64,000 bases of DNA from Candidatus Methanoperedenaceae archaeon GB37 (GTDB lineage: Archaea; Halobacteriota; Methanosarcinia; Methanosarcinales; EX4572-44). The notes beneath the pieces were generated by a model. That model saw nothing but the letters and a program-made list of their open reading frames with translations, had not been told where the DNA came from and searched no databases. Shown in pieces: positions 11,795-31,870 of this stretch (positions are counted from its first letter, which is position 1; every line of letters starts with the position of its first letter). The stretch covers positions 1,338,150 to 1,402,149 of the forward strand of contig LR991653.1 of NCBI GenBank assembly GCA_905171695.1. Reading direction: 5' to 3'. A program made the translations under genes and the position numbers.

Positions 11795-12188
11795 ACTTCT
11801 CCATTTTTAAATCGAATTCTTCTAAATGTCTTCCTTCACGAAATTCTTCTGCTAGATAGGCAGGGCAAACAAGTATTGATTCCATGTATTTATCATGTTT
11901 ATCTGAGATTTGATTTCTATTATTAAAATCCTGTTCTAGGTCACAATCTTGGGTTAAAACAATAATATACGGCACATTTTTTTCTACAACATTATATTTT
12001 GATCCTATGTCATCAGCATATTGCATTTCTAACAATAGCATATCTCTTAAAATATCTCCCTGATAGACCCTTCCGTTATTACGCTTACAGTATTGAGTAT
12101 CAACTTTTGAGGGAAACATAGGCAACGACCCTTTTTCTTGCCTTCGTTTTGGGGTATTTTGAAACATCCAATTCGACATCGTATTCAT
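11772..12188 (-). pseudogene. 5' part of the IS-disrupted gene (unknown function)
   Basis: Reads ...GRVYQGDILRDMLLLEMQ...VPYIIVLTQDCDLEQDFNNRN...ILVCPAYLAEEFREG...MEKWGRVHLI*. The last codons are IS terminus sequence. The true start is probably an internal Met (12167 or 12119) because the 5' end overlaps ORF 12100-12303. Confidence 0.45.
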
Positions 12189-13195: not shown

Positions 13196-13315
13196 CGGGT
13201 TGCGTAGCAATCTGGTTCATGTTTCTTCCTCTCGTTTTCTTCGTTAAACGAATCCAAGCCCTGTTTCTTTTGGTGGTTCAGGTCTCCTTTCCTCCGGGAA
13301 GGAGAATTGGAAATT

Positions 13316-13394
13316 TTGGCTAACGTTCTGCGGATAAAAGAAGTTGCCGAAGGCAATTTGGACGAAGCGTAGCGAAGCCTTTTATTAGATGATG
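13316..13394 (-). repeat. Long-form attC-like structured repeat (E5), decayed copy
   Basis: About 90% identical to 14323-14408 over TAACGTTyTGCGGATAAAAGAAGTTGCCGAAGGCAATTTGGrCGAAGCGyAGCGAA. Relative to that copy it lacks 7 nt (CCGCTGT), which removes half of one stem arm. Confidence 0.7.
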
Positions 13395-13410
13395 TGCGGA
13401 GTCCATATTA

Positions 13411-14322: not shown

Positions 14323-14408
14323 GTCATCTAACGTTTTGCGGATAAAAGAAGTTGCCGAAGGCAATTTGGGCGAAGCGCAGCGAAATCTTTTATCCGCTGT
14401 TATATGAC
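14323..14408 (-). repeat. Long-form attC-like structured repeat (E4)
   Basis: Minus-strand reading: GTCATATAAC-A-GCGGATAAAAG-(38 nt incl. TTGCCTTCGGCAA hairpin)-CTTTTATCCGC-AAAAC-GTTAGATGAC. It has a perfect 11-bp stem pair, and the outer boxes are 9/10 complementary. Confidence 0.8.
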
Positions 14409-14462
14409 CCGAAGGGTAAGGTTGCAAAGCAACCATAGAGTACCGAACCCCGTCTAATATTT

Positions 14463-14997: not shown

Positions 14998-15018
14998 TCA
15001 TATAACTATGTTATATCA
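14998..15018. repeat. Palindromic minimal site TCATATAAC-TAT-GTTATATCA at the boundary of the cassette region
   Basis: Read directly. It overlaps the stop codon (15011-15013) of the CcdA/DsbD-like gene. Its minus-strand half GTTATATGA-AATTCCG matches the conserved GTTnnnnGAAATTC motif. Confidence 0.7.
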
Positions 15019-16363
15019 CTCCGAGTTGGATCAGTGCGGCGAGTGCGAAGAGCGTTATCCCTGTTATGATGCGGAGGGCGACACGCCACTCTTCTCTGAA
15101 CGATTCAACCTTCTCTGGGGCAAGTCCCGTGGCGATGGCTGCGCCTATGAGAAGCACTGGGAGCATGACTCCGAGGTTGTAGATTGCAAGGTATAACATG
15201 GCACTTGATTTGCCGCTCTTTATCATCTCGAGTATTGCAAGGTATATGGCGCCGACACACGGGGCTTTTATAAGTGAGAAGAGGCTTCCGAGTATGAAGG
15301 ATGCTGGGAGGCTTGCACCTTCTATTGCTCGTTCGGTCATTTTTGTGAAGATTTTTGGTGTGCGGAAGGTCGATCTCTTGTTCTTCTCGGATGTGTGGAT
15401 GTGATATGCGTCGTATACCTGCCAGAGCCCGAGTGCTACGATTAAGAGAACCAAGAATGTCTGGACCCCTTCCTGCATCTCACTGCCGATGACTTCGAGA
15501 AGACCGATTCCGAATATCAGATAGGTGGTGAAGATCCCAGAGCTGAAGGCAATCACAATGTAGAGAACGTTTCTTCTCTTTCCAGTGGATGCAAGGGTGA
15601 TACTTGCTATGAATGCAATTATTGCAAATAGGCAGGGGTTCAATCCAGCAAATAGTCCCATGAGTAAGATTGAAGGTGGTGAAAGGTCTGGTCTAACGTT
15701 TATCGTCAGGTCTTCTGATGCAAAGGTATGGTTTGAATCGTTCAGATAGAGGATTGTTCTTGAGAGGAGCCGTCTGCCATACCCTGATTTCTCTACTCTG
15801 ACTTGGTAGGTGTACGAGGCTTTATCATGGGGCTTGAGTCGTGCGTTCCACGAGGTCTCTCCGCCGATGAGTGTTGCGTTCGAAGTGAGGCGTTCGGTTG
15901 CGTTGATCTCTGCACTCCTGTTGCCTGTGTTTGTGAGAGTGATTGTGACGTTGATGAGATCCCCAGGTGCAGTCGATGTCCTGTCTGACCTCTTCTCGAT
16001 CGTTATAACAGGTTTTCCTCCTAAGGATTCTTCGATCTCTCTAAGAAGGAGTCTCTTGAGGAGTGTGGTGTTGCCGTTGTAGTCTTCATAGCTAATGAGC
16101 GTTGTTTCATCTATCACGATGCTTGGGATCTCGAAGACTCCATAGCTCTTTGCCTTCAGGATTCCTTCGTCGTTCTTGAGGTTATAGATCTCGTAGTGTA
16201 CTTTTCCCTCGTATCTGTAAACGACCTCTTCAACGACTGGGCGTGCGTCCTCGCATCTTGAGCAGAGTGGGTCGTAGAAGTATTTCACGCTGATGGGAGA
16301 CCTGGCGCTGGCTGGTATTGAGGGGAGGAGTAGAAGTAAGAGGAGGAGTGGCAAGACTCTCAT
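15011..16363 (-). CDS. Thiol:disulfide transfer membrane protein (signal peptide + thioredoxin-like CxxC domain + beta-sandwich + CcdA/DsbD transmembrane domain)
   Basis: 450 aa with MRVLPLLLLLLLLPSIPASA; DPLCSRCEDARP; and a C-terminal polytopic region with GLNPCLFAIIAF and IKAPCVGAIYLAIL (the two conserved Cys of DsbD/CcdA). Confidence 0.7.
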   Translation of the reverse strand: MRVLPLLLLLLLLPSIPASARSPISVKYFYDPLCSRCEDARPVVEEVVYRYEGKVHYEIYNLKNDEGILKAKSYGVFEIPSIVIDETTLISYEDYNGNTTLLKRLLLREIEESLGGKPVITIEKRSDRTSTAPGDLINVTITLTNTGNRSAEINATERLTSNATLIGGETSWNARLKPHDKASYTYQVRVEKSGYGRRLLSRTILYLNDSNHTFASEDLTINVRPDLSPPSILLMGLFAGLNPCLFAIIAFIASITLASTGKRRNVLYIVIAFSSGIFTTYLIFGIGLLEVIGSEMQEGVQTFLVLLIVALGLWQVYDAYHIHTSEKNKRSTFRTPKIFTKMTERAIEGASLPASFILGSLFSLIKAPCVGAIYLAILEMIKSGKSSAMLYLAIYNLGVMLPVLLIGAAIATGLAPEKVESFREEWRVALRIITGITLFALAALIQLGVI

Positions 16364-16504
16364 GAAGATCTCCGTAACAGCCTCTTTTTTAATCTGCTTA
16401 GAGATAAAGCATAGGGGCAGGGCATGAAAAAGAGAGGGGGTTAGGGTGTGACTGAGGGGGAACGATCGGGTTTTGATCGGGTTTTATACTTCCCAGGCAG
16501 AGGT

Positions 16505-17137
16505 TTATCTTTCAAGTATCATCGTTGTTGTGGCGTTCATCGTTCTGCTGTTCATCACAAGAGTTGCTGTTACGCTGTGTATGCCTGGATCGAGCTTGGC
16601 ACAGCCTGTGCAGCTCGGTGTTGTGAATGTGAAAGGTATCTCGTTCTCACCCGGGCTCAGATTCACATACCTAACCTCTCTTATTTTATCTCTACCCAGC
16701 TTATTTGTGAGCCCTGAGACCGTTAGTTCTACGTCGGATAGTTCACTCTCAGCGAAGACTGTTACGTTCACATGCATCATCTCACCAGAGTGATATGTCT
16801 CGTTCTCTATGGCAATCACGAGAACTGGTTTCACGTCTTCTACTTTCAAGAGAGGGGTATCGTTCTGATCGCTGAATGTTCCCCAAAGCGCTGCATAGAT
16901 GCCGGCATTACCGTAATCATCGATGGTATCTGATATGTTCTCAAGTTTGATCGCTCCGTCAAGCATTCCGTCCCTGATCTCGCCCTCAAGAGAGACATGC
17001 TTATCTATGTATTCGCTCCCATTTGCGAGGAGCTCTCTTGGTGATAACTCTTCATATACGATCTTCTCTGTGCATCCCATGCCTGCAATAACTATTGCCA
17101 GGATGCCTATCAGGATCTTTGATCTTATTCCCTTCAT
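16505..17137 (-). CDS. Putative secreted lipoprotein, unknown function
   Basis: The internal start gives MKGIRSKILIGILAIVIAGMGC (signal peptide plus lipobox-like Cys). The 53 upstream codons of the track ORF lie in repeat/promoter-like sequence. Confidence 0.5.
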   Translation of the reverse strand: MKGIRSKILIGILAIVIAGMGCTEKIVYEELSPRELLANGSEYIDKHVSLEGEIRDGMLDGAIKLENISDTIDDYGNAGIYAALWGTFSDQNDTPLLKVEDVKPVLVIAIENETYHSGEMMHVNVTVFAESELSDVELTVSGLTNKLGRDKIREVRYVNLSPGENEIPFTFTTPSCTGCAKLDPGIHSVTATLVMNSRTMNATTTMILER

Positions 17138-17264
17138 CGTTACTGCCGTCCACTCGTACTCTCTTCTGGATAATCGGTCCCTCATCCAAACTCTCTCCTC
17201 GGGATGAATGCACCGATTCTCCAGGAGCAGGTTCTCTAATACTCGTTCTATAATATTAGTCTTA

Positions 17265-17302
17265 CCCAATCCCCATCTTCTATATATTATATCCATGGGT
17301 GG
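17265..17302 (+). repeat. Left copy of a direct repeat bracketing the type III-C island
   Basis: CCCAATCCCCATCTTC (17265-17280) ... TGGGTGG (17296-17302). The same two blocks recur at 24825-24840 and 24846-24852. Confidence 0.8.
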
Positions 17303-17305
17303 CGG

Positions 17306-17391
17306 CGGGACGCGTCCATATAAAGCCGCGTAAATCTAAAAAACCGCTAACTGGCTTAGAGGGAAAATATACAAAGTGGACACATCCGCCC
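17306..17391. mobile_element. Miniature (about 86 bp) derivative of the IS6-like element (MITE-like)
   Basis: GGGACGCGTCCA (17307-17318) matches the IS left terminus GGGACCCGTCCA 11/12. GTGGACACATCCGCCC (17376-17391) matches the right terminus GTGGACACGTCCCC. Only about 57 bp lie between them and there is no ORF. Confidence 0.55.
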
Positions 17392-17437
17392 TACGTAATG
17401 ATAAAAAATAAAAGGTGGTATTGTATTAGATGAAAAC

Positions 17438-18523
17438 ATGGAAATTAAAATTAAGGCACTTACGCCCATCTGGACTGGTGGAGTGGAAGGCAAACCAGAC
17501 AGATTGCATACGACAAGCATCATTGGCAGCATGCGTTGGTGGTACGAGGTCGTTGTTAGGGGCCTTGGAGGGTATGCGTGTGATCCGTCGAGCGAAAAGA
17601 GATGTGAATTGTCGGGTAAGGAAAAGACACGTGAGGAAAGGCTTGCTAAGTTGTGCCCGGCATGTTATCTGTTTGGATGTGGGGGATGGAAAAGAAGATT
17701 TCGGTTAGAGGTTCAGAGTAATACCTCTGTTCCTTTTCAATTGGCCACTTTGGAAAGTAAGAACAAATTCAATCACTGGTGGCTTTCGCAGATTTTTGAA
17801 GATTCGCGAGGAACGAATTTACCATTTGGAGAGATATCATTGTCTTTAAATGGGGATGATGACGTGATTGATCAGGTTAAAGCTCTACTCTCTATCATGG
17901 TAAATATTGGTGGAATCGGTGCAAAAACTCAATATGGGTATGGTCAATTCGATTGGGACGATAAAATAGAATTAAAAAATGCGATTAACACAATTCGCCA
18001 GTTCTTATCAGGAAATATTTTTAAAAGCGGTTCAAACAAAGATAAATGGTATTCACTGACTAATTTTTGGTATTACAAATTGTCCATAACGTCTGACAAT
18101 GGGTTGGTGAACAAATTTAAAAATGCAAACTTGATTGGCAATGGAAATATGCCCTCGGATTATTTGCCTGTTTCGTTCGACATTCGCTATAAAATGCCAA
18201 GTTCTGGGGATGGTACTGGATTAAGGAGTGCATATTATTCATTTTGTAGGCATTCCATGTCAAAAGAAGACGCAAAACAAAAAACAAGATCATTATTTGG
18301 AACACTTGAAAATGATAAAATCGGAAGCAGGATTTTTGTAAGTCATCTTTTCAGGAGGAGAAACATTGATAATAATCATCATCTGAAAGTTTGGGGATTT
18401 ACTGACGATTCGGTTGGAAAAGTTGTTGGTGATGAATTAAAGAACATTTTTGGATTGGATAAACCCCCTTCTATAGTAACTGGAAAAGAGCTTATCAACT
18501 ACTCAAGGGGTGAAGTCCAATGA
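17438..18523 (+). CDS. cmr1: Type III RAMP protein, Cmr1-like (Cas7 group)
   Basis: 361 aa with IKALTPIWTGGVEGKPDRLHTTSIIGSMRWWYEVVVRGLGG, a Cys cluster ending CPACYLFGCGGW, and the Gly-rich GGIGAKTQYGYGQF. Confidence 0.75.
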   Translation: MEIKIKALTPIWTGGVEGKPDRLHTTSIIGSMRWWYEVVVRGLGGYACDPSSEKRCELSGKEKTREERLAKLCPACYLFGCGGWKRRFRLEVQSNTSVPFQLATLESKNKFNHWWLSQIFEDSRGTNLPFGEISLSLNGDDDVIDQVKALLSIMVNIGGIGAKTQYGYGQFDWDDKIELKNAINTIRQFLSGNIFKSGSNKDKWYSLTNFWYYKLSITSDNGLVNKFKNANLIGNGNMPSDYLPVSFDIRYKMPSSGDGTGLRSAYYSFCRHSMSKEDAKQKTRSLFGTLENDKIGSRIFVSHLFRRRNIDNNHHLKVWGFTDDSVGKVVGDELKNIFGLDKPPSIVTGKELINYSRGEVQ

Positions 18524-19767
18524 ATTATGATTATTGCTCGCATCTCACGAAGGAACAAAACCAAACCATTGAAAAAATATTGCGTCTAGAAAATGAAATA
18601 AAACAGGATAAACAGATAAAACAACAAAAAGAAACCGAAGTCGGAAGGCTACGAAAAGAATTATTATCACAAAACCCGCATTTGTTCTATCACGTTATAG
18701 CAGTGTTGAATAATTCATTAAAAGATAATTTACGCTCCACATGGCAAACGGGAAATATCAATATAAAATTGAACAATTACCATATCGATGAAATTATATC
18801 TCCATCAATCAACATATCCGTACTTCCAAAATACTCTTTTCTAATCCAATTCAAATTTACACTCGAAAAACCTTATATCTCACGTGATGAACAGGATTTT
18901 TACATCATAGACAATCCTATCCGCAAAGACAGGGTCTTTGGTCTTCCCTATATTACTCCCTCCTCATGGAAGGGAAGCCTACGGGCCGCACTGTGGCAAA
19001 ATGGACATAAAGAAGACGATGTCCAGATCAATCGAATATTTGGAAATAAACGAGGGATAGAAGAGCATACTGAACTCAAAGCCGGGCGATTGCATCTGTT
19101 TCCCACATTCTTTGATAGAATCGGTCTTGAGATAATAAATCCTCATAACAGGGAGAGACGGATTGTTGAGTATCCGATTCGTATCGAGGCCGTTCCGGGT
19201 GGTACATCGGGTATATTCACCCTTTTATATGTTCCATTCGATTTGATTGGGAAGAATGAAAAGGAGTTTAATAATCAGATCTCAAAAGATGTATGGATAA
19301 TTGCGCAGGGATTGAAAGCAATGTTCAGAGATTATGGCTTCGGTGCAAAGACTTCCAGTGGATTCGGTATTGCAAAACCAGAATTTACCGAAGGAAAACT
19401 CGTTCTGAAGGTCGAGGGCATAGACATCAACCAAAAAGAGGAGGCGACCATCCAAGAACCGGAGGACGGGTTTAAAAAATATCTTAATAGCGATGGGATT
19501 GTGAAAGAGGAGTTTAAAGGGAGTGGCGACGCTGGCCTTCTCAGCAACAATGAGTATAGCGAAACGGGTGAAAAATACGGCGGCGGCAGTCTTACCGAGT
19601 TCAAAAAGTTCAGGCGATGGTATGGCCGTTATGGTGAGAAATGGCAACAACAGTTAAAGAATTCTCATGCCGAATGGCCTATCTGGTGGTTTGAAAGCTT
19701 TGACGAGCTGGTGAATGTTGCGACGGAAATAAAAGAATCACTACTTTCCAAGGAGGCTGCGCGATGA
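18520..19767 (+). CDS. cmr6: Type III RAMP protein, Cmr6-like (Cas7 group) with N- and C-terminal extensions
   Basis: 415 aa with FGLPYITPSSWKGSLRAALW...INRIFG and the G-rich loop YGFGAKTSSGFG. It overlaps its neighbours by 4 nt at both ends (operon coupling). Confidence 0.7.
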   Translation: MNYDYCSHLTKEQNQTIEKILRLENEIKQDKQIKQQKETEVGRLRKELLSQNPHLFYHVIAVLNNSLKDNLRSTWQTGNINIKLNNYHIDEIISPSINISVLPKYSFLIQFKFTLEKPYISRDEQDFYIIDNPIRKDRVFGLPYITPSSWKGSLRAALWQNGHKEDDVQINRIFGNKRGIEEHTELKAGRLHLFPTFFDRIGLEIINPHNRERRIVEYPIRIEAVPGGTSGIFTLLYVPFDLIGKNEKEFNNQISKDVWIIAQGLKAMFRDYGFGAKTSSGFGIAKPEFTEGKLVLKVEGIDINQKEEATIQEPEDGFKKYLNSDGIVKEEFKGSGDAGLLSNNEYSETGEKYGGGSLTEFKKFRRWYGRYGEKWQQQLKNSHAEWPIWWFESFDELVNVATEIKESLLSKEAAR

Positions 19768-22451
19768 CTCCTGACCTTTCAGTTCTGAAGGAAAATAAGG
19801 AAGTCCTCCTCGCAGAGATGGCCGCCTGGCTGCATGATATGGGGAAGTGTAGCGATGAGATGATAGAAAAACAGGCTTTGGATTGTCCATCATCACCCAC
19901 ATTTCAATCCAATAGTGCATATAAAACCGCTTTTTCTTATCTACTGAATGGTAATAATCATAATATTAATTTGTTAGGCGAAACAGTAACCTTTAAAGAC
20001 CTCGTTGAAAAGGGGATGCCTAGGGCAATAAAGGATAGTAGTATTCAATTATCGCTAATTAAATACTTGGGTCGGTGTCATGCTGCTGCGCACATCGAAA
20101 AAGAAGGACAAGCAGATAAAAAGCAGACGGTGAATGATACAAGATTGAGTTCTCCCTTTGGAAATGAAACGGAAGTATTAGTACGTCTTACAGATAAGTT
20201 GAAAGCTTTGCCCTTTGATAAAATAGTCAACAGGGAGGAATTCCTGCCTATTTTGAAAGAAACATTCAAAAACGCACCTGGAGACACGGAAAGACCAATA
20301 AACGAGGTTGATCTGTGGAGCTGGTCCAGCATAGTCGCTGCTCTTTACAAATCTGCACTGGCAGGGGCACTTCTTGGTAACAAACCCAAACCAAATGATT
20401 TGAAGTGGCGGTTGTTGGCCATAAGAATTGATTCCGATAGGATTCTTGGCGATGTGGCGAAGATTCCAGTATTGCTTGCCAGAAAGAAATGGATTACCGA
20501 AGGGTTAGATAATGTTAAAGAACTGATTGAAGAAGAATATCCTCTTGGAAACGAGGTTTACAGGGATGAGAGCGGAAGTATTTTCGTTGTGCCGGACATC
20601 CCGAGTCTATTGAAACTTAAAGAAAATGCGGATAGTTCTGAAAAGACCTTGGAAGATTTAATCTCCAAAAAGTTAGGATTTGAAGGAGAGATTGTTGTAA
20701 CGCCTTCGTTATCTGAACACTGGTGGGGTCAGAATCCTAGTGGAAGACCTGATCCTACGAAAGATAAGATCCCACCGATTGGAGAGATCTTTCAGGAAAA
20801 ACCATATTCACCACCGGACCCAGAAAAGGTTAAGGAATGGTGGCGGGATGTGGACAATACAGAGATTTGCACGATTTCCTGGCTGAGACCTCAGGGAAAA
20901 AAAGAAGGAGCTTTGAGAAAATCTTCAGATTACTGGGCAAAAAAGGTTCGGGGACGATCTGAAGAATGGTATAAGGACAGGAGCAAAACTATATGGATAG
21001 ATGAGGTGGCAGATAAAAACGGCAGAATATGTCTCATCACCGGCAAACTGGACATATCAGGATGGTTAAAACCTAACGGTCATGTGAGGACCCTGCTTGT
21101 TAAGGCTCCAGATGGTAATTCCAGTCAAGTCATTCAGAAAACCCCTTCATTCGCTCGCCTCAGACGTGTCTGGGAAACAACAAAGACGTTCTGGGAGGAA
21201 GTCGAAGAAGATTTTGAGAAAACTGTCGGCAGGGTAGAAAAAAGATTGGTTATTACTGGCTCTGTAGATGATCTATCCAAAAATAAGCTTTTTAAAAACA
21301 ATGTGTATGAGATAGATATCGAAAAAACAAGGGTAAGTGTTTTCTATTCTGGAAATGGTCGGTTTATTGTCGTTGAAAATCTTGAACGATTGGCCCGTAA
21401 GATGGGTTATTCAAAGAACGATGATGACTATTTAGTGTACATTCAACAAGAATTAAACGATAAAGAAGTCAGAATATATAATCCAGACGGTAATAATAGA
21501 AATAAGCACATTGTACTAATAAAAATGTTGAGGGTCGAGCCGATAGAGGATAATTTCATTCCTGTGATCCCTATCTTCTCTGAGCCCAGTCTATTCATGG
21601 CAATCGTACCTGCCAACAAGGCTATGGACATCGTAAAAAACATCAATAAAAAATATGAAATAGAAATGGATAAAGTACGAAACCGTCTCCCTCTTAATAT
21701 CGGATTGACCTTTGCCAGATCTCATACGCCGATAATGGCTTTAATGGAGTCGGGGTGGAAGATGATAAACGCATCTCTAAAGGAGGAAATCAGGATACTC
21801 AATGCAGACTCTGAAAAATGCGATGATAAATATATCTTAAATTTCGAGAACGGGATAACCTGGCGTGTTCAGGGGAAAATGGGGGATGGAATAACAGAAG
21901 ATGTTTGGTATCCGTATTTTTATGTGGATGGAAATCCGAACGATAGAAATATGGTTTTTAAAGGTCCGAAGGGGTGGCTAGTGCATGTATCAGAATTAAA
22001 AAAAGGGGATGCCGTCAAAATCACACCTTCCTCTTTTGATTTCGAGTTTCTGGATTCTGCATCCCGGAGGTTTGAGATATCTTATGATGAAACTGGAAAA
22101 CGGCGTGATAATACAAAATCTAACCGTCCATATTTGATTGATAAATTTGATGACTTCGAGCGTATCTGGAAAGAGATGACAAATAATTTAGCAGCCACTC
22201 AAATAAAGAACGTCATAGGCCTTATTGAAACCAAACGGGAGGAATGGAATGTTTCCAGAGATGATGAAACATTCAAACAATTCGTCAATGATGTTCTCCG
22301 CAATGCCAACTGGAAGCATGGCACCCCTCAAAACCTCGATGAGATCACAAACATAGCAGTAAGTGGAGAGTTAAAAGATATTATCGAACTTTACATGAAT
22401 ATACTGAAGGCAAAAGGAGATTATATGAACGATACAGAGGTGAATACATGA
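19764..22451 (+). CDS. cas10: Cas10 large subunit with N-terminal HD domain and no GGDD cyclase motif
   Basis: 895 aa with HD motif AAWLHDMGK at residues 20-28. The conserved post-palm segment is RLPLNIGLTFARSHTPI. Where GGDD is expected about 40 aa upstream, the sequence reads SEPSLFMAIVPA. No GGDD occurs anywhere in the protein. Confidence 0.8.
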   Translation: MTPDLSVLKENKEVLLAEMAAWLHDMGKCSDEMIEKQALDCPSSPTFQSNSAYKTAFSYLLNGNNHNINLLGETVTFKDLVEKGMPRAIKDSSIQLSLIKYLGRCHAAAHIEKEGQADKKQTVNDTRLSSPFGNETEVLVRLTDKLKALPFDKIVNREEFLPILKETFKNAPGDTERPINEVDLWSWSSIVAALYKSALAGALLGNKPKPNDLKWRLLAIRIDSDRILGDVAKIPVLLARKKWITEGLDNVKELIEEEYPLGNEVYRDESGSIFVVPDIPSLLKLKENADSSEKTLEDLISKKLGFEGEIVVTPSLSEHWWGQNPSGRPDPTKDKIPPIGEIFQEKPYSPPDPEKVKEWWRDVDNTEICTISWLRPQGKKEGALRKSSDYWAKKVRGRSEEWYKDRSKTIWIDEVADKNGRICLITGKLDISGWLKPNGHVRTLLVKAPDGNSSQVIQKTPSFARLRRVWETTKTFWEEVEEDFEKTVGRVEKRLVITGSVDDLSKNKLFKNNVYEIDIEKTRVSVFYSGNGRFIVVENLERLARKMGYSKNDDDYLVYIQQELNDKEVRIYNPDGNNRNKHIVLIKMLRVEPIEDNFIPVIPIFSEPSLFMAIVPANKAMDIVKNINKKYEIEMDKVRNRLPLNIGLTFARSHTPIMALMESGWKMINASLKEEIRILNADSEKCDDKYILNFENGITWRVQGKMGDGITEDVWYPYFYVDGNPNDRNMVFKGPKGWLVHVSELKKGDAVKITPSSFDFEFLDSASRRFEISYDETGKRRDNTKSNRPYLIDKFDDFERIWKEMTNNLAATQIKNVIGLIETKREEWNVSRDDETFKQFVNDVLRNANWKHGTPQNLDEITNIAVSGELKDIIELYMNILKAKGDYMNDTEVNT

Positions 22452-23407
22452 ACAGTGAAAAGAAAAAGCTGTACACCCACCAGCGGTTTGTAATGTTCGC
22501 TCTTGACCCGATTCATATTGGGGCTGGTGGATACCGTCTTGGTCGGGTTGACAACAGTATTGTAAGAGAAATGGGGACGAATTTACCGAAGATTCCGGGT
22601 ACAAGCCTTGCAGGTGCCGCGCGAAGTTATGCTTCGATGAGATATGGGAAGCCTGAAGCCGCAGGCCAGCATAAACGGTTTATAGGTGAAAAAGAGAAGT
22701 GCCCGATAATCTACACCTTTGGAACCGCAACGGAAACCGGTGGTGAGGCAGGCAAGGTCAGCTTTGGAGATGCAAGGATTTTATTCTTCCCGGTGCCTTC
22801 AGTGGCGGGTCCTGTATGGGTCACCACAAAGGAGATTCTTGAGGAAGTTGGGTTCACCGTTAATGGTGGCGATGTCGGTGAGGAAACTGTGCTGTCCAAT
22901 CTTTCCTGGAGTAAAGAGCAAATAAACCTCGGCTGGTTATCGTTGAATCATAACTGGGGCTTAACCATTTCTCCACCCGAAGAAATCAAAGACAAAAAGG
23001 GATGGAAAGCAATAGAAAACAGGATTGTCCTCATTTCTCAGAAATTGTTTTCAGAGGTTGTCAACAGCAATTTGGAGGTGCGAACATCGGTTGCCATAAA
23101 CCCCGAGACCGGAGCTGCTGAAGACGGTGCCCTGTTCACATATGAAGCATTACCTCGAGCTACCTGGTTATGGCATGATATCATCGAGGATGATTACAAA
23201 CAAAGTTTCCCGAAAACGGAAAATCAATTCAAAGATAACAAGGAAAACAGTGGGGATGCTCTCGGGGAGATATGGGAGCGACCGTTGGATGTTGTGAAAG
23301 CCGGTTTAAGATTAATCGAATACCTTGGAATCGGTGGCATGGGGACACGCGGTTTTGGGAGGATGAAAAACATCTGTGATTGGGAGGTTGGCAGTAATGA
23401 ATCTTGA
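22448..23407 (+). CDS. cmr4: Cmr4-like Cas7 backbone subunit
   Basis: 319 aa with ALDPIHIGAGGYRLGRVDNSIVRE...LPKIPGTSLAGAARSYA and the C-terminal GIGGMGTRGFGRM glycine-rich loop. Confidence 0.8.
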   Translation: MNSEKKKLYTHQRFVMFALDPIHIGAGGYRLGRVDNSIVREMGTNLPKIPGTSLAGAARSYASMRYGKPEAAGQHKRFIGEKEKCPIIYTFGTATETGGEAGKVSFGDARILFFPVPSVAGPVWVTTKEILEEVGFTVNGGDVGEETVLSNLSWSKEQINLGWLSLNHNWGLTISPPEEIKDKKGWKAIENRIVLISQKLFSEVVNSNLEVRTSVAINPETGAAEDGALFTYEALPRATWLWHDIIEDDYKQSFPKTENQFKDNKENSGDALGEIWERPLDVVKAGLRLIEYLGIGGMGTRGFGRMKNICDWEVGSNES

Positions 23408-23762
23408 CCTTGAAGCTACGAGAACCTCCCAGGAAATAATAACGAAGACGGGAGGAAATAGATCCAGTGAGGTTGAAAACCTGATTACTAAGACGCTAGG
23501 GGTTCTTCAGGAGAACGGCATTTATGCATGCACACTCTATCTGAACTCCAGAACGAGTGAAGCGGAGAAGAAGATTGGCCCTGTCATCCACGAGGAACTT
23601 CTTAAAATGACGAAACGACTTGTTAAGACACCAATAAAAAACGATGATTACGAATATCTTACGGACGAAATCTGTTCAGACATTGACCTACTTATACTAA
23701 CAAAACAGCTCTGGGAGCAGACATTGACCTATGCTAGATACGGGGCGAAAGCAAGGACGTGA
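23397..23762 (+). CDS. cmr5: Cmr5-like small subunit (Cas11)
   Basis: About 121 aa and predicted helical (..VENLITKTLGVLQENGIYACTLYLNSR..). It lies between cmr4 and cmr3. The ATG at 23397 overlaps the cmr4 stop region; the track ORF starts at 23376. Confidence 0.6.
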   Translation: MNLDLEATRTSQEIITKTGGNRSSEVENLITKTLGVLQENGIYACTLYLNSRTSEAEKKIGPVIHEELLKMTKRLVKTPIKNDDYEYLTDEICSDIDLLILTKQLWEQTLTYARYGAKART

Positions 23763-23766
23763 TATT

Positions 23767-24660
23767 ATGACATGGACCCCCTATCTTGTAAGTTTCAAAT
23801 TGCGCTCACCAGTTCATATCGGATGGAAAAAAATTGGAAACTTGCAAGTAACACGCCCTTACATTACCGGAAAAACATTATGGGGTGCGCTGACAGCAAG
23901 ACTTGTTAGAGATGAAGGGAATAGCAATTATAGTGAGATTGGAAAACAAGTAGATGATGAATTACGCTTCACTTACTTTTATCCATCAACTAGTCCAGAT
24001 AAGGTCAATCTATGGCCATGGGATAAAAAGAACGAGTTTGCCTGGAAATTTCTGGGTAGTTATATCAGTACTGCAATAGAAGGCGATACCGCCGAGGAAG
24101 GGAGCCTCCATGAGGTTGAGTATATATCCCCAACAACTCGTGATGGAAACCCGGTCTTTCTTGTTGGGTATGTGATTGAAAAGAAGGATTGCCACTTGAA
24201 ATGGAAGGAAGCTTTAAAGCGGATTCAAATTGGCGGTGAGAGAGGATATGGATGGGGACGAACTGAGTTATTGAGCGATCCCAAACCAGTAGAAGAGTGC
24301 TTTGGTTATAGAATCGATAATTCCGAGATTTCTCCAATGATTTCTATTCCCAAAGATAATGTGATTCTTGCACATGCAAAAACCGATTTCCTAAAATGCA
24401 TAGGATATATTGAACCATTTCTGGGGAGAGAAACAAATGATTCGGATGGCGTTGGTGGAAAAATACCGCACCCTATAGGTGGAAAAATACCGCACCCTAT
24501 AGGTGGAAAAATACCGCACCCTATAGGTGGAAAAATACCGCACCCTATAACATGTTACACACCAGGGAGTAAAGTTGTGGCCGATACAACATTCGTTATT
24601 CAACCGAAAGGAGTATGGGAAAAAACGAGGTGCAATAGTTCGGGAGGTTCCAATCCATGA
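23767..24660 (+). CDS. cmr3: Cas5-group RAMP (Cmr3/Csx10-like) with an internal tandem octapeptide repeat
   Basis: MTWTPYLVSFKLRSPVHIGWKKIGNLQVTRPYITGKTLWGALTARLVR..., IGGERGYGWGR glycine-rich loop, then (GGKIPHPI)x4. It is the last gene of the operon. Confidence 0.65.
   Translation: MTWTPYLVSFKLRSPVHIGWKKIGNLQVTRPYITGKTLWGALTARLVRDEGNSNYSEIGKQVDDELRFTYFYPSTSPDKVNLWPWDKKNEFAWKFLGSYISTAIEGDTAEEGSLHEVEYISPTTRDGNPVFLVGYVIEKKDCHLKWKEALKRIQIGGERGYGWGRTELLSDPKPVEECFGYRIDNSEISPMISIPKDNVILAHAKTDFLKCIGYIEPFLGRETNDSDGVGGKIPHPIGGKIPHPIGGKIPHPIGGKIPHPITCYTPGSKVVADTTFVIQPKGVWEKTRCNSSGGSNP
24454..24549 (+). repeat. Perfect 4 x 24-bp in-frame tandem repeat (GGTGGAAAAATACCGCACCCTATA)
   Basis: Read directly: units at 24454-24477, 24478-24501, 24502-24525 and 24526-24549, with no mismatch. 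Each unit encodes GGKIPHPI. Confidence 0.97.
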
Positions 24661-24803
24661 CTCTGCGGACACTCCGTGTCCTTGCCTCGCCTTCGGCTCG
24701 GTCATATAACATGCGGGTATGCGGTTCGGGCTTACGCCCTCACCCAAATTGCTCCGCTCCCGTTGGTCGCTACGCAACTTCGCATACCCGCAAACCGTTA
24801 TAC
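24661..24803 (+). repeat. Long-form attC-like structured repeat (E1) immediately 3' of the type III-C operon
   Basis: CTCTGCGGACACTCCGTGTCCTTGCCTCGCCTTCGGCTCG-GTCATATAAC-AT-GCGGGTATGCG-(58 nt incl. CACCCAAATTGC)-CGCATACCCGC-AAACC-GTTATAC. It has the same architecture and conserved blocks as 14323-14408(-), but the 11-bp stems carry different, mutually compensating sequences. Confidence 0.8.
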
Positions 24804-24824
24804 CAACAATAAGTTTACAGAACC

Positions 24825-24852
24825 CCCAATCCCCATCTTCTTATATGGGTGG
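24825..24852 (+). repeat. Right copy of the direct repeat bracketing the type III-C island
   Basis: CCCAATCCCCATCTTC (24825-24840), TTATA, TGGGTGG (24846-24852). Compare 17265-17302. Confidence 0.8.
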
Positions 24853-24943
24853 TGTGTCTCGATATCTCTTTTATTGGTCTCATAGTTTATGTACCAAAAC
24901 AGATATACTATGATTGTCATCCAGCCGTCTTGTATTCGATTGT

Positions 24944-25049
24944 GCGAGGGTAACCAAGTCGGCCAAAGGTGCAGGACTTAAGTGGTACTGGTGGTATCGG
25001 AGTTATCCTGTCTCGAAGGAGTTCATGGGTTCAAATCCCATCCCTCGCA
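24944..25049 (+). tRNA. tRNA-Leu (anticodon UAA) with a 22-nt intron after position 37
   Basis: Acceptor GCGAGGG/CCCTCGC; anticodon stem CAGGA (24972-24976)/TCCTG (25006-25010); loop CTTAAG + intron TGGTACTGGTGGTATCGGAGTT (24983-25004) + A; long variable arm; T arm ATGGG-TTCAAAT-CCCAT. No CCA is encoded. Confidence 0.8.
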
Positions 25050-25094
25050 TCAAAAACAGAAAATTTTCTGAATTGTGATGGATGTGGTCTCTTG

Positions 25095-25634
25095 ATGGTT
25101 GACGATGATACTCTCTTTGGCGAGGTTGTTCGGGTGGATGGTGTGAATGTGTATCTTGTGAGGTCGGTCTCTCGGTCTTCTCGTGAGCTTGGTGTTGGCG
25201 AGTTCGTGGGAGTTGAGTGTGGAGGGGATGTTGTGGTCTCTGTTCTCACTGGCGTGGAACGGTCGATACCTGAGGATGTGGTATCGATGATCTCTCTTGA
25301 GATGGAGTCGAAGTATCTCCCTTACAGTTCTGAGCTGGATAGTAGCTATTATCGTCTCTTTGGGCTTGGGCTTCTCTCCCGGAGTGGTGTTCAGCATGGT
25401 CTTCGTGTGGCTCCGCGGCTTCGCAGCAGGGTGTGGCGATTGGATGATGATACGATCAGGAAGTTTCACCTACCTCATGGTCGTGCTAACATCTCTTACT
25501 TCAATCGGTATCGTGAAGCACTCGGGGATGATCTCCTGCTTGCGATCGTTGATGAGCTCTGGGCTCTTCTGCCAGAGGCTCGGAGGATGCTTGCGCCGGT
25601 CAGGAAGTACCTTAAGGGTGGTGGTGCACTCTGA
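25095..25634 (+). CDS. Hypothetical protein resembling a stand-alone HerA-type N-terminal barrel domain
   Basis: From the internal Met (the track ORF start at 24969 lies inside the tRNA). FGEVVRVDGVNVYLV...GEFVGVECGGDVVVSVLTGVER parallels the N-terminal region of the downstream ATPase. Confidence 0.4.
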   Translation: MVDDDTLFGEVVRVDGVNVYLVRSVSRSSRELGVGEFVGVECGGDVVVSVLTGVERSIPEDVVSMISLEMESKYLPYSSELDSSYYRLFGLGLLSRSGVQHGLRVAPRLRSRVWRLDDDTIRKFHLPHGRANISYFNRYREALGDDLLLAIVDELWALLPEARRMLAPVRKYLKGGGAL

Positions 25635-25642
25635 GCGGGTGT

Positions 25643-27223
25643 GTGATCGGGCTTGTCTTGACGCACACGCGTGAGGGCTTCTCTTTTGTAACGAAGTACT
25701 CACTTGCATCTGGCGAGTTTGTCTCTTATCGGTCTGGGAGTGATCGCGTCCTTGCCCGTGTGAGTCATACTGAGCCCTTGCGGGATTATCCTGTGGAGTT
25801 CCTGCTCGATCCCGAGGTTGACGCTGAGGATGTTGCACTCTTTTATGGGCTTGATGCAGATGATTATCGGTTTTATCGTGTGCATGCACGGGTTGTGGGC
25901 TACTTTGACAGGCGGGTTAACGAGTTCATAAACCCGCGTATGATGCCGCTCTCAGGGACGAGGATAGAGCGAGTGGATGAGACGATCCTCTCGGATGTGA
26001 ACCGGGTCTCTGCAGACGAGGTTGGCTCGGCTCACATCGGCACGATACTTGGCACGAAGACCGATGCTGTTCTCTCTGTTCGTGAGATGGTGAGCCAGCA
26101 TCTCTCAATCATCGCTGCAACGGGCGCAGGCAAGTCCTATACCGTTGGCGTGATCGTGGAAGAGTTGATCTCGGCAAAGAACATGGCGTCGGTATTGATC
26201 TTCGATCCACACGGCGAGTACAGTGTGCTAAGCGAGATTCAGAACGATCAGAGCTTCTGGGAAGAGGGGTATCGACCAAGGGTGCGGATCGTTAAGCCGG
26301 ACCAGATAAAGATCAGACTCGGTGATCTCACGCCTGGCGATTTTATCAGTATCATGGACGATGGTAACATGTCAGAGAAGATGAAGACGCTCTTTGTGGA
26401 GGCTTATGAGAGTTTGAAGAGGGATGAGAGGAGCCTCACACGAAGTTTCACCAGGAACGAGCTTCGTGAGACTATTGAGGGCTTAAGTGATGGCAAGAAT
26501 GAGCTGAGCATTGCAGGCCTCCTCTGGCGCTATGATAGGATGGTGCGTGAGAAGATCTTCGATGACTTTCGGAGCATCCCACTCCGCGAGTACTTCCAGC
26601 CAGGGCTTCTCACCATAATGGATGTCTCAGGCATAGGGGAGTGGAAACAGCAGTTGATCGCAACGATTCTCCTCCGCCAGCTCTTCGATTCTCGGGAGGG
26701 CACAGATAATGAGCGTTACAGTGAAGAGTTCCGACCTGAGCGTTATCTACCCTATCCTGTCTTCCTGATACTTGAAGAGGCGCACAGGTTTGCACCGCAG
26801 AGTGGAGATGCGAAATCGAGACAGATACTCAAGAAAATCCTATCAGAGGGTCGAAAATTTGGAATTGGCGTATGCATGGTCTCACAGCGCCCAAGTAAAC
26901 TCGATTCAGATGCGCTCTCTCAGTGTATGACACAGATCACGATGCGAATCATCAATCCAGCAGATCAAAAGCAGATAGGAGAGAGCATCGAGTCGGTGAG
27001 CAGAGACCTGCTCGAAGAGCTACCAGCCCTCACACGGGGGCAGGCGATCGTAAGCGGTGTTGCCATAAACACACCGATCATCGTTGATATCAGAAAGCGG
27101 CGCACAAGAGAGATAGGTGGGACGAGCAAGGACGCACCGCAACTCTGGAGAGAAGAGATGCAAGAGAGGCGATATGAGACGGTGGAGAGACGGCCAAGCT
27201 ACGAACTCGATGTGGGAGTATAA
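25643..27223 (+). CDS. HerA/DUF87-type P-loop ATPase
   Basis: 526 aa with Walker A IIAATGAGKSYTV, Walker B/sensor VFLILEEAHRFAP, and GRKFGIGVCMVSQRPSKLD, typical of HerA/FtsK-like DUF87 ATPases. Confidence 0.75.
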   Translation: MIGLVLTHTREGFSFVTKYSLASGEFVSYRSGSDRVLARVSHTEPLRDYPVEFLLDPEVDAEDVALFYGLDADDYRFYRVHARVVGYFDRRVNEFINPRMMPLSGTRIERVDETILSDVNRVSADEVGSAHIGTILGTKTDAVLSVREMVSQHLSIIAATGAGKSYTVGVIVEELISAKNMASVLIFDPHGEYSVLSEIQNDQSFWEEGYRPRVRIVKPDQIKIRLGDLTPGDFISIMDDGNMSEKMKTLFVEAYESLKRDERSLTRSFTRNELRETIEGLSDGKNELSIAGLLWRYDRMVREKIFDDFRSIPLREYFQPGLLTIMDVSGIGEWKQQLIATILLRQLFDSREGTDNERYSEEFRPERYLPYPVFLILEEAHRFAPQSGDAKSRQILKKILSEGRKFGIGVCMVSQRPSKLDSDALSQCMTQITMRIINPADQKQIGESIESVSRDLLEELPALTRGQAIVSGVAINTPIIVDIRKRRTREIGGTSKDAPQLWREEMQERRYETVERRPSYELDVGV

Positions 27224-27326
27224 AAGAACAACCAGACCACATGCTACCCAATGCAGAAAACCCGTGTTAAGCGAAATTGCCTCAGCAAAAGTAGGTTCTA
27301 TGAAGTCTTAGAGAAGGGTACAAAAT

Positions 27327-27815
27327 ATGCCAGAATGGAAAAATCACGATAAGTGGGCTGAAAAAATGGGGATATCAAAAGAGACTTCAAAGTTTGTCAA
27401 TGGTCTAATTGATTTTCCAAAAAATTGTCAAGAGTTCCAAGATTTTTGTGAGAGAGACCCTAGTGCAAGAATTTTTACCAAAGGTAGACCAACACGCATG
27501 ACTGTAGCATCCCTAATAACCCACGATAGTGGTAGAAGTAACAAATTTTATAGAGAAATACAGCTAAAATTCTTATCACAAAAAGGGAGCGATCATGTAA
27601 AAGCATATTATCTACACCAAGTTTTAGATTATATAGAATGGTGGATTAAAAATTATTCTGAAGAAAATCTAACCGTTGAAAACATTTTACAGGAAAAAAG
27701 GTTGGAAAAGAAAATTGGCGATCCTATAAACGAAGAATTACAGTCAGTGGTGAAATTTGCAATCCAAAATTCAGAGGAAATATTGCAAGATTATAGCAGG
27801 GATGACATAAAATGA
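27327..27815 (+). CDS. Hypothetical protein (AT-rich single-gene cassette)
   Basis: 162-aa ORF, compositionally unlike its flanks and bounded by GTTAAGCG (27266) and the structured repeat at 27885. No family recognised. Confidence 0.5.
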   Translation: MPEWKNHDKWAEKMGISKETSKFVNGLIDFPKNCQEFQDFCERDPSARIFTKGRPTRMTVASLITHDSGRSNKFYREIQLKFLSQKGSDHVKAYYLHQVLDYIEWWIKNYSEENLTVENILQEKRLEKKIGDPINEELQSVVKFAIQNSEEILQDYSRDDIK

Positions 27816-27884
27816 TCAGAGAATCTATACTTTTAGTTGAAGATAATTCTTTGCCCATTTCATTAGCTCAGCGCTGTTGCACTC

Positions 27885-27956
27885 ACTTAACACGGTGTAT
27901 GCAGTTCGCTTTCATTTACCCACACTGTTCGGCTTCACAGCGCATTTCGCATACAC
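27885..27956 (+). repeat. Long-form attC-like structured repeat (E8)
   Basis: ACTTAAC-AC-GGTGTATGC-(46 nt)-GCATACAC-AAGAA. It has a perfect 8-bp stem pair GTGTATGC/GCATACAC. ACTTAAC fits RYYYAAC. No clear GTT box follows. Confidence 0.6.
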
Positions 27957-28049
27957 AAGAATGGATGAGGGATTACACCGTTTGATTAAGTATAAATCCG
28001 ATGGTGTGAGTACTCGGGAAGATGATCTTACGTCTGCAGGGATAGAATC

Positions 28050-29012
28050 ATGGAAGGGTTTGAACTTGTTAAAAGGAACACGGAAGAGCTTGTGAGCGAA
28101 GAAGAGATACGAGAGCTCTGCAGTTCCAGTCAGACGCCAAGAGCGTATGCCGGATATGAACCGAGTGGAAGGATACACATGGGGCATGTTCTGACCGTGA
28201 ACAAACTGATAGACCTCAAGAGGGCTGGATTTGACGTGACAGTCCTACTCGCAGACCTCCACGCATACCTCAACCGCAAAGGCAGTATGGACGAGATCCG
28301 AGAGATGGTTGAGTACAACAAGAGGTGTTTCATTGCACTCGGGCTTGACGAGAAGAGCACAAGATACGTCTGCGGGACAGACTTTCAACTCGGCTCCGAG
28401 TACACCCTGAATATGCTCAAGCTCTCAAGAACTGCCACGTTGAATCGAGCACGAAGAAGCATGGATGAAGTAAGTCGTGACGCAGAGAACCCATACGTCT
28501 CACAGATGATCTACCCGCTGATGCAAGCCGTTGACATAGCAATGCTGAGAATAGACGTTGCAGTCGGCGGAATCGACCAGCGCAAGATCCACATGCTCGC
28601 ACGAGACACACTACCATCCATCGGCTTCAAACCACCACTCTGCATCCACACGCCGATCCTGACAGGCCTCGACGGCTCCAAGATGTCAAGCTCAAAAGAG
28701 AACTATCTCTCAGTCGATGATGAACCAGAAGTCCTAAAGCGAAAGATAAAGAAGGCATACTGTCCCGAAGGCAGAACCGAGAAGAACCCAATCCTTGAAC
28801 TCTTCAGATACCACATCGAACCAAGATACGGAAGACTCAAAATAGAACGACCAGAGAAATTCGGAGGCGATATAGAATACGAAGACTACACTGCGCTTGA
28901 GAGCGACTTTGCAGAGAGGAGATTACACCCACAGGACCTTAAAAGAAGCGCAGCCGAATACCTGATAAAGATCTTCGAACCTGTCCGAAAGATGATGAAG
29001 AGCACAGAGTGA
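28050..29012 (+). CDS. tyrS: Tyrosyl-tRNA synthetase (archaeal type)
   Basis: 320 aa with GYEPSGRIHMGHVLTV (HIGH-type motif), DLHAYLN and KMSSSK (KMSKS motif). Confidence 0.9.
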   Translation: MEGFELVKRNTEELVSEEEIRELCSSSQTPRAYAGYEPSGRIHMGHVLTVNKLIDLKRAGFDVTVLLADLHAYLNRKGSMDEIREMVEYNKRCFIALGLDEKSTRYVCGTDFQLGSEYTLNMLKLSRTATLNRARRSMDEVSRDAENPYVSQMIYPLMQAVDIAMLRIDVAVGGIDQRKIHMLARDTLPSIGFKPPLCIHTPILTGLDGSKMSSSKENYLSVDDEPEVLKRKIKKAYCPEGRTEKNPILELFRYHIEPRYGRLKIERPEKFGGDIEYEDYTALESDFAERRLHPQDLKRSAAEYLIKIFEPVRKMMKSTE

Positions 29013-29084
29013 AGAAGAGCAACATCCATATACTTTCTACTCCTTTGTGGTGTTGTGAGGATTCTCACGAAGAGGTGAATAGGT

Positions 29085-29927
29085 ATGGATGATAAGAGTA
29101 ATGATGTTGAGAGTGATAAGGTCTCCGAGGCACCTGAGGCACCTGAGGTTCCAGCTACACTGGAGCGTATCAAGCACAAGATCGTGGTTATGAGTGGTAA
29201 GGGTGGTGTTGGTAAGAGCACGGTTGCAGCCAATCTGGCACTTGCACTTGGGCGCAAAGGCTATTCAGTTGGGCTCCTTGATGTTGATATTCATGGGCCC
29301 ACCATCCCAGAGATGCTCGGTGTTGCATCTGAAACGCCCATTATTGAGAATAAGAAGCTGGTACCTGTCAGGGTCTCAGAGAATATTAAACTGATCTCGA
29401 TAGCGTTCATGCTCCCGGATAAAGACTCTCCTGTTATTTGGCGTGGTCCGATGAAGAGTGGGGTGATTCGTCAGTTCATAGGCGATGTGGACTGGGGAGA
29501 GCTTGACTATCTCGTGGTCGACCTGCCGCCTGGCACAGGCGATGAATCGCTAAGCATCGCCCAGATGATGCCTGGGAGCTATGCACTCATCGTTTCAACG
29601 CCACAGGAGATTGCACTCCTGAGCGTCAGAAAGTCGATAAACTTTGCAAAAATGTTGAAGATGCAGATCGTTGGGATCGTTGAGAACATGAGTGGATTCA
29701 TCTGCCCGCACTGCGGTGAGAAGACCGATCTCTTCAAGTCTGGCAGAGTCAAAAGCGTCGCAGAAGAGTTCAAGATACCGTTTCTTGGCAGTATCCCGAT
29801 CGACCCGGAGATAGTTGAGAGCGGTGACAGAGGGACGCCCTTTATACTGCGACACAGAGACTCGCTCTCAGGCAAGGTCTTCGAGGAGATCGTCTCAACG
29901 ATAGAGGAGTTCGTGGCAAAGGGTTGA
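29085..29927 (+). CDS. Mrp/NBP35-family Fe-S cluster carrier ATPase
   Basis: 280 aa with the deviant Walker A VMSGKGGVGKSTVAANLA, DLPPGTGD and the CPHCGE cluster-ligand motif. Confidence 0.9.
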   Translation: MDDKSNDVESDKVSEAPEAPEVPATLERIKHKIVVMSGKGGVGKSTVAANLALALGRKGYSVGLLDVDIHGPTIPEMLGVASETPIIENKKLVPVRVSENIKLISIAFMLPDKDSPVIWRGPMKSGVIRQFIGDVDWGELDYLVVDLPPGTGDESLSIAQMMPGSYALIVSTPQEIALLSVRKSINFAKMLKMQIVGIVENMSGFICPHCGEKTDLFKSGRVKSVAEEFKIPFLGSIPIDPEIVESGDRGTPFILRHRDSLSGKVFEEIVSTIEEFVAKG

Positions 29928-29984
29928 GGTAGCAGTCCTGACCACTTCACAATCAAGAGTTGCTCAGAGAGAAGAGGCAATATA

Positions 29985-30305: not shown

Positions 30306-30387
30306 GCGAGGTTGAAAACTGCTGCAAAGAGTTATGGCAGATAAGTGCGTATCCTATCTATGCCCTTATAGGCAGGAGATATGAGTT

Positions 30388-30678: not shown

Positions 30679-30754
30679 ATATCAAGAGGCATATTGAATG
30701 CTTGAAAAATCAGCAACTTAGCTAAAAAAATAAAGAAGGTATACGTGGGAAGGT

Positions 30755-31183: not shown

Positions 31184-31325
31184 TCTAAGCTACGACTAAA
31201 AAATCCTGACAATATCCTCGATCCAGCTGATATCGCTCTGACCAACGCCAGACACAAAGTATAAGAAGTAATATGAACCATATCTCCATAAGTCGATCGA
31301 GCATCGAGAGAAAGGATGTGATACT

Positions 31326-31866: not shown

Positions 31867-31870
31867 TATT

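Follow-up and report, generated by a model that had tools for sequence, protein, structure and literature searches.

A type III-C CRISPR cassette of Candidatus Ethanoperedens thermophilum lies between two copies of a chromosomal site that is single in island-free strains

Introduction

Tyrosine-integrase islands of the SSV and pNOB8 types are flanked by attL and attR direct repeats (left and right attachment, or att, sites) next to tRNA genes, and the cis-mobilisable elements (CIMEs) of Streptococcus are att-flanked islands that have no recombination or transfer genes. Here we describe an island that recalls both, in a 64,000-nt stretch of DNA (the window) from the ethane-oxidising archaeon Candidatus Ethanoperedens thermophilum (GB37). 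It carries a type III-C CRISPR effector cassette between two copies of a short interrupted repeat. Like tyrosine-integrase islands, it is discrete, strain-variable, lower-GC DNA with direct repeats of 28–38 bp, a single-copy empty site and a tRNA neighbour. Unlike them, it has no integrase gene, its site is a putative promoter region between genes, 91 nt upstream of tRNA-Leu, and a variable TA-rich spacer interrupts the identity of the repeats. With CIMEs the island shares att-like flanking repeats and the lack of a recombinase, and it too would depend on functions supplied in trans; it differs in its archaeal host and its cas effector cargo, and here neither a helper element nor an att site shared with an integrase-bearing element was identified.

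Two kinds of transposition also invite comparison. Casposons are Cas1-dependent transposons, some of which lie near tRNA-Leu in Methanosarcina. Common to them and the island are the host order (Methanosarcinales), a nearby tRNA-Leu gene, a target-like duplication and a link to CRISPR, but the island has no Cas1, PolB or terminal inverted repeats and its duplication spans 28–38 bp as against 14–15 bp. The translocatable units and cointegrates of IS26 and the IS6 family of insertion sequences (IS) have their counterpart here in an IS6-type end at one boundary, an 8-bp block at both junctions and an element without a duplication of its own, whereas the single element copy, a target free of IS and an additional 16-nt duplication fall outside the IS6 mechanism. 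Type III modules are commonly unlinked to a CRISPR array or to adaptation genes (PMC3973734). The stand-alone archaeal III-C cassettes (Csx11/TIGR02682, MTH326-like) described in the same work resemble ours in their Csx11 large subunit, their Cmr-like order and their lack of linkage to array or adaptation genes; exact boundaries, a target sequence and island-free sister strains are visible here and were not described there.

In its behaviour the locus resembles a genomic island with att flanks but no integrase of its own, loaded with a stand-alone type III-C interference cassette; both are known categories. It does not belong with tRNA-targeting integrase islands, IS6 compound elements, casposons or Xer-dependent elements. 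That an island with cas genes should vary between strains is expected biology, and the strains of Ca. Ethanoperedens thermophilum do not all have the same CRISPR effector repertoire. The literature widely treats type III interference modules as exchangeable cassettes and usually documents them by gene content, not by insertion junctions; in this ethane oxidiser from an uncultivated lineage, the target, both junctions and the island-free sister strains can all be seen. Enrichment cultures (Ethane37 and Ethane50) exist in which excision and integration can be tested directly.

Empty and occupied sites in sister strains

A 7,550-bp segment of the window is precisely present or absent among the strains compared, and the site at which it lies is single-copy when empty and duplicated when occupied. 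The left copy of the site (attL-like; 17265–17302, plus strand) consists of a 16-nt block, CCCAATCCCCATCTTC (17265–17280), a 15-nt TA-rich spacer, TATATATTATATCCA (17281–17295), and TGGGTGG (17296–17302). The block recurs exactly in the right copy (attR-like; 24825–24852, plus strand) at 24825–24840, where a 5-nt spacer, TTATA (24841–24845), separates it from TGGGTGG (24846–24852). The common blocks can be extended by one base per side to 17 nt (…CTTCT) and 8 nt (ATGGGTGG), and similarity between the copies ends abruptly beyond them (AGTCTTA versus CAGAACC on the left, CGGCGGGAC versus TGTGTCTCG on the right). The composite of block and TGGGTGG occurs twice in the window, and 0 of 100 shuffled sequences gave two matches.

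Strain variants were reached through the 90% protein cluster of the lipoprotein encoded left of the island and through a homolog search; look-ups of four window proteins by exact sequence gave no match. Two contigs are island-free: L085 (ENA ERZ1742239, 31.5 kb), which carries lipoprotein variant P0127, and L087 (GCA_029932115.1), which carries variant P0134. Their flanks are 96–99% identical to the window, and all three are strains of one species. L085 aligns to the window over 15010–17302 and then 24825–34706, and L087 over 15071–17302 and then 24825–34687; the overlap of a few tens of bases between the paired alignments is the repeat itself, which places the breakpoints at 17302 and 24825. 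The order in L085 is herA, an open reading frame (ORF) of 180 aa, tRNA-Leu, a single motif copy, the lipoprotein gene and DsbD; cas genes are absent. In L087, the second empty site, the lipoprotein gene, a single motif copy, tRNA-Leu and herA likewise adjoin one another.

The empty-site sequence reads …AGTCTTA-CCCAATCCC(C)ATCTTC-spacer-TGGGTGG-TGTGTCTCGATATC…-tRNA-Leu; in it, the left copy runs straight on into the sequence that flanks the right copy on its right. Indeed, the sequence to the right of the right copy (TGTGTCTCG…) directly follows the single copy in both L085 and L087, such that the empty (attB) junction reads …TATATCCATGGGTGG joined to TGTGTCTCG. The single copy has the long type of spacer, 15 nt in L085 and 21 nt in L087. 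Missing from both contigs is the island-only DNA at 17303–24824 (7,522 bp without either copy; 7,550 bp including one repeat copy; 7,560 bp from copy to copy).

A preliminary description of the window had read the interrupted repeat with its unequal spacers as a duplicated target or att site, created by integration of an island of about 7.5 kb some 90 bp upstream of tRNA-Leu, and had proposed a search for island-free relatives with one copy of the repeat. L085 and L087 are such relatives, their breakpoints fall exactly at the repeat, and they support that reading; the net size is 7,550 bp and the distance 91 nt. The same description held that a promoter-type motif common to many unrelated loci, or orthologous empty sites devoid of the repeat, would speak against it. 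Both empty sites contain the repeat. We surveyed the window, 1.09 Mb of related loci, viral contigs and metagenome contigs for the motif: with up to two edits, it occurs in the related loci only at orthologous junctions, and with up to three mismatches there are just two extra matches in the window, both at chance level. An exact scan found the composite motif in no viral contig and, in the metagenome, only at two junctions of the same population; the right copy is unchanged in metagenome contig L074.

The occupied contig L086 (ENA ERZ27227320) encodes the identical lipoprotein P0127 as the empty L085, and in it the motif is followed by an IS6-like miniature element and then by the first cas gene. 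The left flanks of L085 and L086 share 98.45% identity, and neither matches the window as well as it matches the other; the left copy in L086 is the single-copy allele of L085 (three C's, 15-nt spacer). Hence, the left copy is chromosomal through TGGGTGG, which puts the junction to the right of the spacer. L074 and L075 (both JGI) and L076 (Logan) are occupied as well, and so, by neighbouring locus tags, is GB50. Since the presence of the island does not track the relatedness of the flanks, the pattern points to more than one event of gain or loss, or to recombination among strains. Mis-assembly by collapse on the 16-nt repeat is an unlikely source of the empty sites because the two come from different assemblies and have different spacer alleles (15 and 21 nt). 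The closest species representative, ex4572_44 (L001), was ruled out as an empty site, as it is syntenic with the window only over 25073–27223.

Nature of the repeated sequence

Read on the minus strand, the left copy runs from CCACCCA through a TATA-rich stretch to AAGATGGGGATTGGG, and the leader of the lipoprotein gene comes immediately after it; CCACCCA, a TATA box and AAGATGGGG would be the parts of a core promoter. Most simply, the left copy is likely to be the core promoter of the lipoprotein/DsbD operon to its left. The right copy is turned towards the 3' end of the cas operon and has no gene there to drive. A scan for bacterial promoters and terminators was uninformative, the host being an archaeon.

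In more distant relatives the same position, upstream of the orthologous gene and its conserved leader, has a diverged form of the motif (CCACCCACAGATATAGAAAATAGGG in L078 and CCACCACTCACAGATGTAAAAGATGGGGG in L077). Because related sequence has been kept there in both, the repeated sequence is old chromosomal sequence and does not belong to the island. The two window copies agree throughout the 16-nt block, which has diverged in L077 and L078; the duplication is therefore recent, younger than the split from those relatives. The more distant left-flank relatives (L077–L084) proved too short or too rearranged to serve as a test of the sequence upstream of the motif. The TA-rich spacer exists in three alleles among strains, of 15, 21 and 5 nt, and both window copies carry the four-C allele of the 16-nt block. 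Symmetry of the dif type was not found: the arms of the right copy, CCCAATCCCCA and TATATGGGTGG, are not mutual inverted repeats, unlike the inverted 11-bp arms of a 28-bp Xer dif site.

Origin of the island

We favour, with a probability of about 0.6, an explanation in which the two copies mark the ends of a non-autonomous island of 7.55 kb that arose by Campbell-type integration between the divergent lipoprotein/DsbD operon and tRNA-Leu, in the intergenic region. The cassette in circular form, bearing its own copy of the site with the short TTATA spacer, would have recombined with the chromosomal site, the crossover falling in or beside ATGGGTGG and the joining being done by a recombinase supplied in trans or by short-homology recombination. 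Subsequent loss, gain or exchange among strains would then yield the present distribution. The predicted circle junction reads …TTTACAGAACC-CCCAATCCCCATCTTC-spacer-TGGGTGG-CGGCGGGACGCG. Recombination of this kind is favoured because the TTATA spacer matches no chromosomal allele seen, because both empty sites keep the long chromosomal spacer, and because 28–38 bp is a usual length for att sites and greatly exceeds the target duplications of transposons.

Several points weigh against Campbell-type integration. The spacer varies among strains (15, 21 and 5 nt), so that its difference between the copies is weak evidence for an island-borne copy; the TTATA copy could be island-borne or have arisen by later deletion in a true target duplication. 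Both empty sites could be secondary precise deletions and not ancestral. No circular form was seen, the composite motif having no match in viral contigs and its metagenome matches being the two chromosomal junctions. There is no recombinase gene in the island or among the window ORFs checked, and the promoter role of the motif is a proposal from its position and conservation.

The serious rival, which we regard as possible if clearly less probable, is a true target-site duplication. Linear or transposing DNA would have entered a staggered break of ~30–40 nt, fill-in would have duplicated the promoter segment, and the right copy would later have lost 10–16 nt of its spacer. This accords with the four-C allele common to both window copies, with a spacer that is demonstrably unstable among strains, with the single 16-nt deletion that converts the L087-type spacer to that of the right copy, and with an island that has no recombinase. 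A duplication of 28–38 bp, however, far exceeds those of known DDE transposons (2–15 bp) and casposons (14–15 bp); moreover, the ends of the island are not mutual inverted repeats and the right copy equals no chromosomal allele exactly.

It is doubtful that the cassette represents a novel type of defence module, self-contained but integrase-less, whose movement among Ethanoperedens strains relies on site-specific recombination at an att site resembling a promoter and on mobilisation in trans. Such a module would bring its own promoter, together with a structured terminator or insulator in the form of the E1 element at its right edge (see below), and the target copy that it carries would restore the sequence upstream of tRNA-Leu. 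The mobiliser might be, for example, a chromosomal recombinase, or an IS6 transposase for which the miniature element at the other edge is the substrate.

That miniature element (88 bp, ~17304–17391; inverted ends GGCGGGACGCGTCCA and TGGACACATCCGCCC) forms the extreme left edge of the island, 1–3 nt after TGGGTGG, and stands at the junction in every occupied contig checked (L075, L076 and L086). Its ends resemble those of a truncated IS6/IS240 copy at ~11093–11795 (GGGGACCCGTCCAC and GGGGACGTGTCCAC), where an IS6/IS240 transposase remnant lies at 11120–11641 (Pfam DDE_Tnp_IS240). An IS6 transposase acting in trans on the miniature element could have fused a circular cas donor to the chromosome, with ATGGGTGG as the 8-bp target duplication, though we think this very improbable. 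An IS6-type terminal repeat does have its outer end 1–3 nt from the left junction, the right-hand common block is exactly 8 bp, the length of target duplication in the IS6 family, a transposase remnant is present in the window, and no 8-bp target duplication was found around the miniature element, as expected after cointegrate-type events. But a second copy of the element is expected at the right junction and there is none, that edge being made up of E1 and the repeat copy; IS6-type terminal inverted repeats are accordingly confined to the left edge. ATGGGTGG stands at both junctions as part of a longer interrupted repeat and may or may not be such a duplication. The mechanism leaves the duplicated 16-nt block unexplained and finds no IS6 end as a target in the empty sites.

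Least likely of all is a regulatory or promoter motif that occurs twice by chance about an ancestral cas operon, with the empty sites as deletions between pre-existing copies: the TATA box in the motif, the conserved promoter region at the left copy and the single-copy product, exactly that which direct-repeat recombination would yield, suit this view, but the motif is at no other locus (beyond the chance-level window matches), relatives have a diverged 16-nt block in their orthologous promoter, which makes the duplication recent, island GC and third-position GC (GC3) differ from the flanks, the long spacer in both empty sites requires both crossovers to have fallen in the 8-nt and not the 16–17-nt block, and the right copy, at the 3' end of the cas operon, has nothing to drive.

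Gene content and composition

From left to right, the island comprises the miniature element, a candidate promoter, a six-gene Csx11 operon, E1 and, at its end, the site again. For the cas operon, GATAAAAAATAAAAGG (17401–17416, plus strand) is a candidate TATA-type promoter, proposed from the sequence; it lies 22–37 nt upstream of the ATG at 17438. All six genes are on the plus strand. The first encodes a Cmr1-like RAMP protein of 361 aa (17438–18523; PF03787, 5e-26; TIGR01894, 9e-31) and the second a Cmr6/Cas7-like RAMP protein of 415 aa (18520–19767; PF03787, 6e-14; weak Cmr4 and Cmr6 matches). They are followed by Csx11, a Cas10-like large subunit of 895 aa (19764–22451; TIGR02682, 3.9e-179, 598 bits against a curated cutoff of 249), and by the RAMP protein Cmr4 (Cas7), of 319 aa (22448–23407; TIGR02580, 3.4e-38; PF03787, 1.8e-27). 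A putative small subunit of 128 aa (23376–23762) has no family match and is assigned by position, as is the Cas5 role of the final RAMP protein (309 aa; 23731–24660; PF03787, 2.8e-7), which occupies the Cas5/Cmr3 position.

Csx11 (TIGR02682) is a Cas10 analogue and the signature of subtype III-C (PMC3973734). With a Cas10 analogue of this type and four RAMP proteins, the cassette has the composition of a type III-C module, and the gene order (cmr1-cmr6-cas10-cmr4-small subunit-cas5, the small subunit and Cas5 being placed by position) is Cmr-like. The six cas genes listed between the copies in the preliminary description are borne out by profile matches or, for the 128-aa ORF, by position. Neither an integrase nor a transposase was found in the island, all six ORFs being cas proteins or without a family match.

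Tandem Repeats Finder (TRF) detected no CRISPR array in the window, and the island has no cas6 or adaptation genes. A type I-B locus (Cas8b, Cas7, Cas5, Cas3 and Cas6b; GC 34%) lies ~27 kb from the island at 52320–59214; further type III-like genes follow it (region 52320–63488), among them a RAMP gene at 62631–63488. As the island has no array, cas6 or adaptation genes of its own, the orphan III-C cassette presumably uses CRISPR RNAs from the type I-B/Cas6b locus, their likely source.

The island has a GC content of 41.7%, compared with 47–48% in the flanks, and the GC3 of its cas genes is 0.34–0.48, compared with 0.50–0.59 in the neighbouring genes checked. The earlier view that all of the intervening DNA is AT-rich and foreign-looking thus holds to a moderate degree for the island overall, but not for E1, which has a GC of 0.56 and copies elsewhere in the genome. 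The nearest homologs of Csx11 are from Methanosarcinales, at 95% (the GB50 ortholog), 83% (P0148), 71% (P0149), 68% (P0150) and downward. No relatives of Csx11 were found in viral contigs, and plasmid collections gave distant matches only (≤33% identity), on cyanobacterial and Thermus plasmids.

The island itself is a mosaic. In L075 and L086, Cmr1 is a divergent allele with 45% amino-acid identity to that of the window, and the swap spans window positions 17702–18782 (616–1695 in L075), taking in Cmr1 over its C-terminal two-thirds together with the beginning of the gene that follows. Island sequence beside the swapped stretch is 92–96% identical in the other island-bearing strains. The last cas gene contains a perfect 24-bp tandem repeat (24454–24549; TRF) that encodes GGKIPHPI four times. 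The metagenome contig L074 has two units in place of the four in the window, a length polymorphism within the population.

The E1 element

The right edge of the island is formed by a structured element, E1 (24690–24806, plus strand; 82.5 bits with covariance model R1). Further copies lie at 14323–14415 and 13315–13400, both on the minus strand, and at 7911–8009 (plus strand) of L003. The fold is branched: ATAAC/GTTAT form its outer stem, a long stem covaries, two hairpins lie inside and CCCAAATT is conserved and unpaired. Compensatory changes occur at ten base pairs, and in slid controls this signal collapses. E1 has no Rfam match; over 14–28 kb of the window, Rfam gave tRNA only. Each copy lies 10–75 nt after a stop codon and has the orientation of the gene that ends there. 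This arrangement suggests that E1 is an RNA element (3'-end, terminator or processing) and not DNA specific to the island.

Neighbouring chromosomal genes

The left neighbour of the island is a lipoprotein-like gene with a leader of ~120 nt (gene and leader 16505–17262, minus strand; leader 17138–17262; ATG at 17137; signal and lipobox MKGIRSKILIGILAIVIAGMGC), and a DsbD-like gene, whose protein is 100% identical to CAD7773953.1, comes next. The leader is conserved in relatives at 66–78% protein identity (L077, L078 and L080) and contains a hairpin (CTGGAGAATCGGT…ACCGATTATCCAG) with compensatory changes. It has no Rfam match and is a candidate cis-regulatory RNA for the lipoprotein/DsbD operon. 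When the left copy of the repeat is read as part of a longer ORF (16505–17296), a Walker A motif (…RRWGLGKT…) appears. We rejected this reading because the real start is MKGIRSK with a lipobox, and because the three-C allele of L085 and L086 interrupts the extension, which L077 does not conserve either.

To the right, tRNA-Leu(UAA) with a 22-nt intron (~24944–25049, plus strand; Rfam RF00005, 48.1 bits; ARAGORN intron mode) begins 91 nt beyond the right copy. The insertion site is hence upstream of the 5' end of the tRNA gene and not inside it, and no partial copy of tRNA-Leu was found elsewhere in the window. Beyond the tRNA lie the 180-aa ORF and a herA-like DUF87 gene (25073–27223). This two-gene block is the only part of the region that is syntenic with ex4572_44, and it is bracketed by a 27-nt inverted repeat (25064–25090 and 27234–27260). 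L080–L083 have herA pseudogene fragments within the lipoprotein/DsbD locus. The two-gene block may be mobile in its own right.

Further rearrangements surround the locus. Synteny between the window and L085 stops at 15010, the stop codon of DsbD, which marks a second strain-variable boundary; L086 matches the window there. Beyond this point, L085 has BofA, an amino-acid kinase and a tRNA deacylase, and the window has DUF3795, two E1 copies, an Rce1-like gene, the truncated IS6 copy and a low-GC stretch. The part of the window that includes 4900–7950 and 11093–11795 is rich in insertion sequences; 4900–7950 holds an IS with a DDE_Tnp_1 transposase (7007–7729) and degraded partial copies (5068–6766). 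Upstream of the lipoprotein leader in L080, two copies of a ~200-bp element stand in tandem (6915–7165 and 7297–7520), each with a stem GTTGTGTGC…GCACACAAC and each ending in a CCACCCA-TATA-like sequence that resembles the motif studied here.

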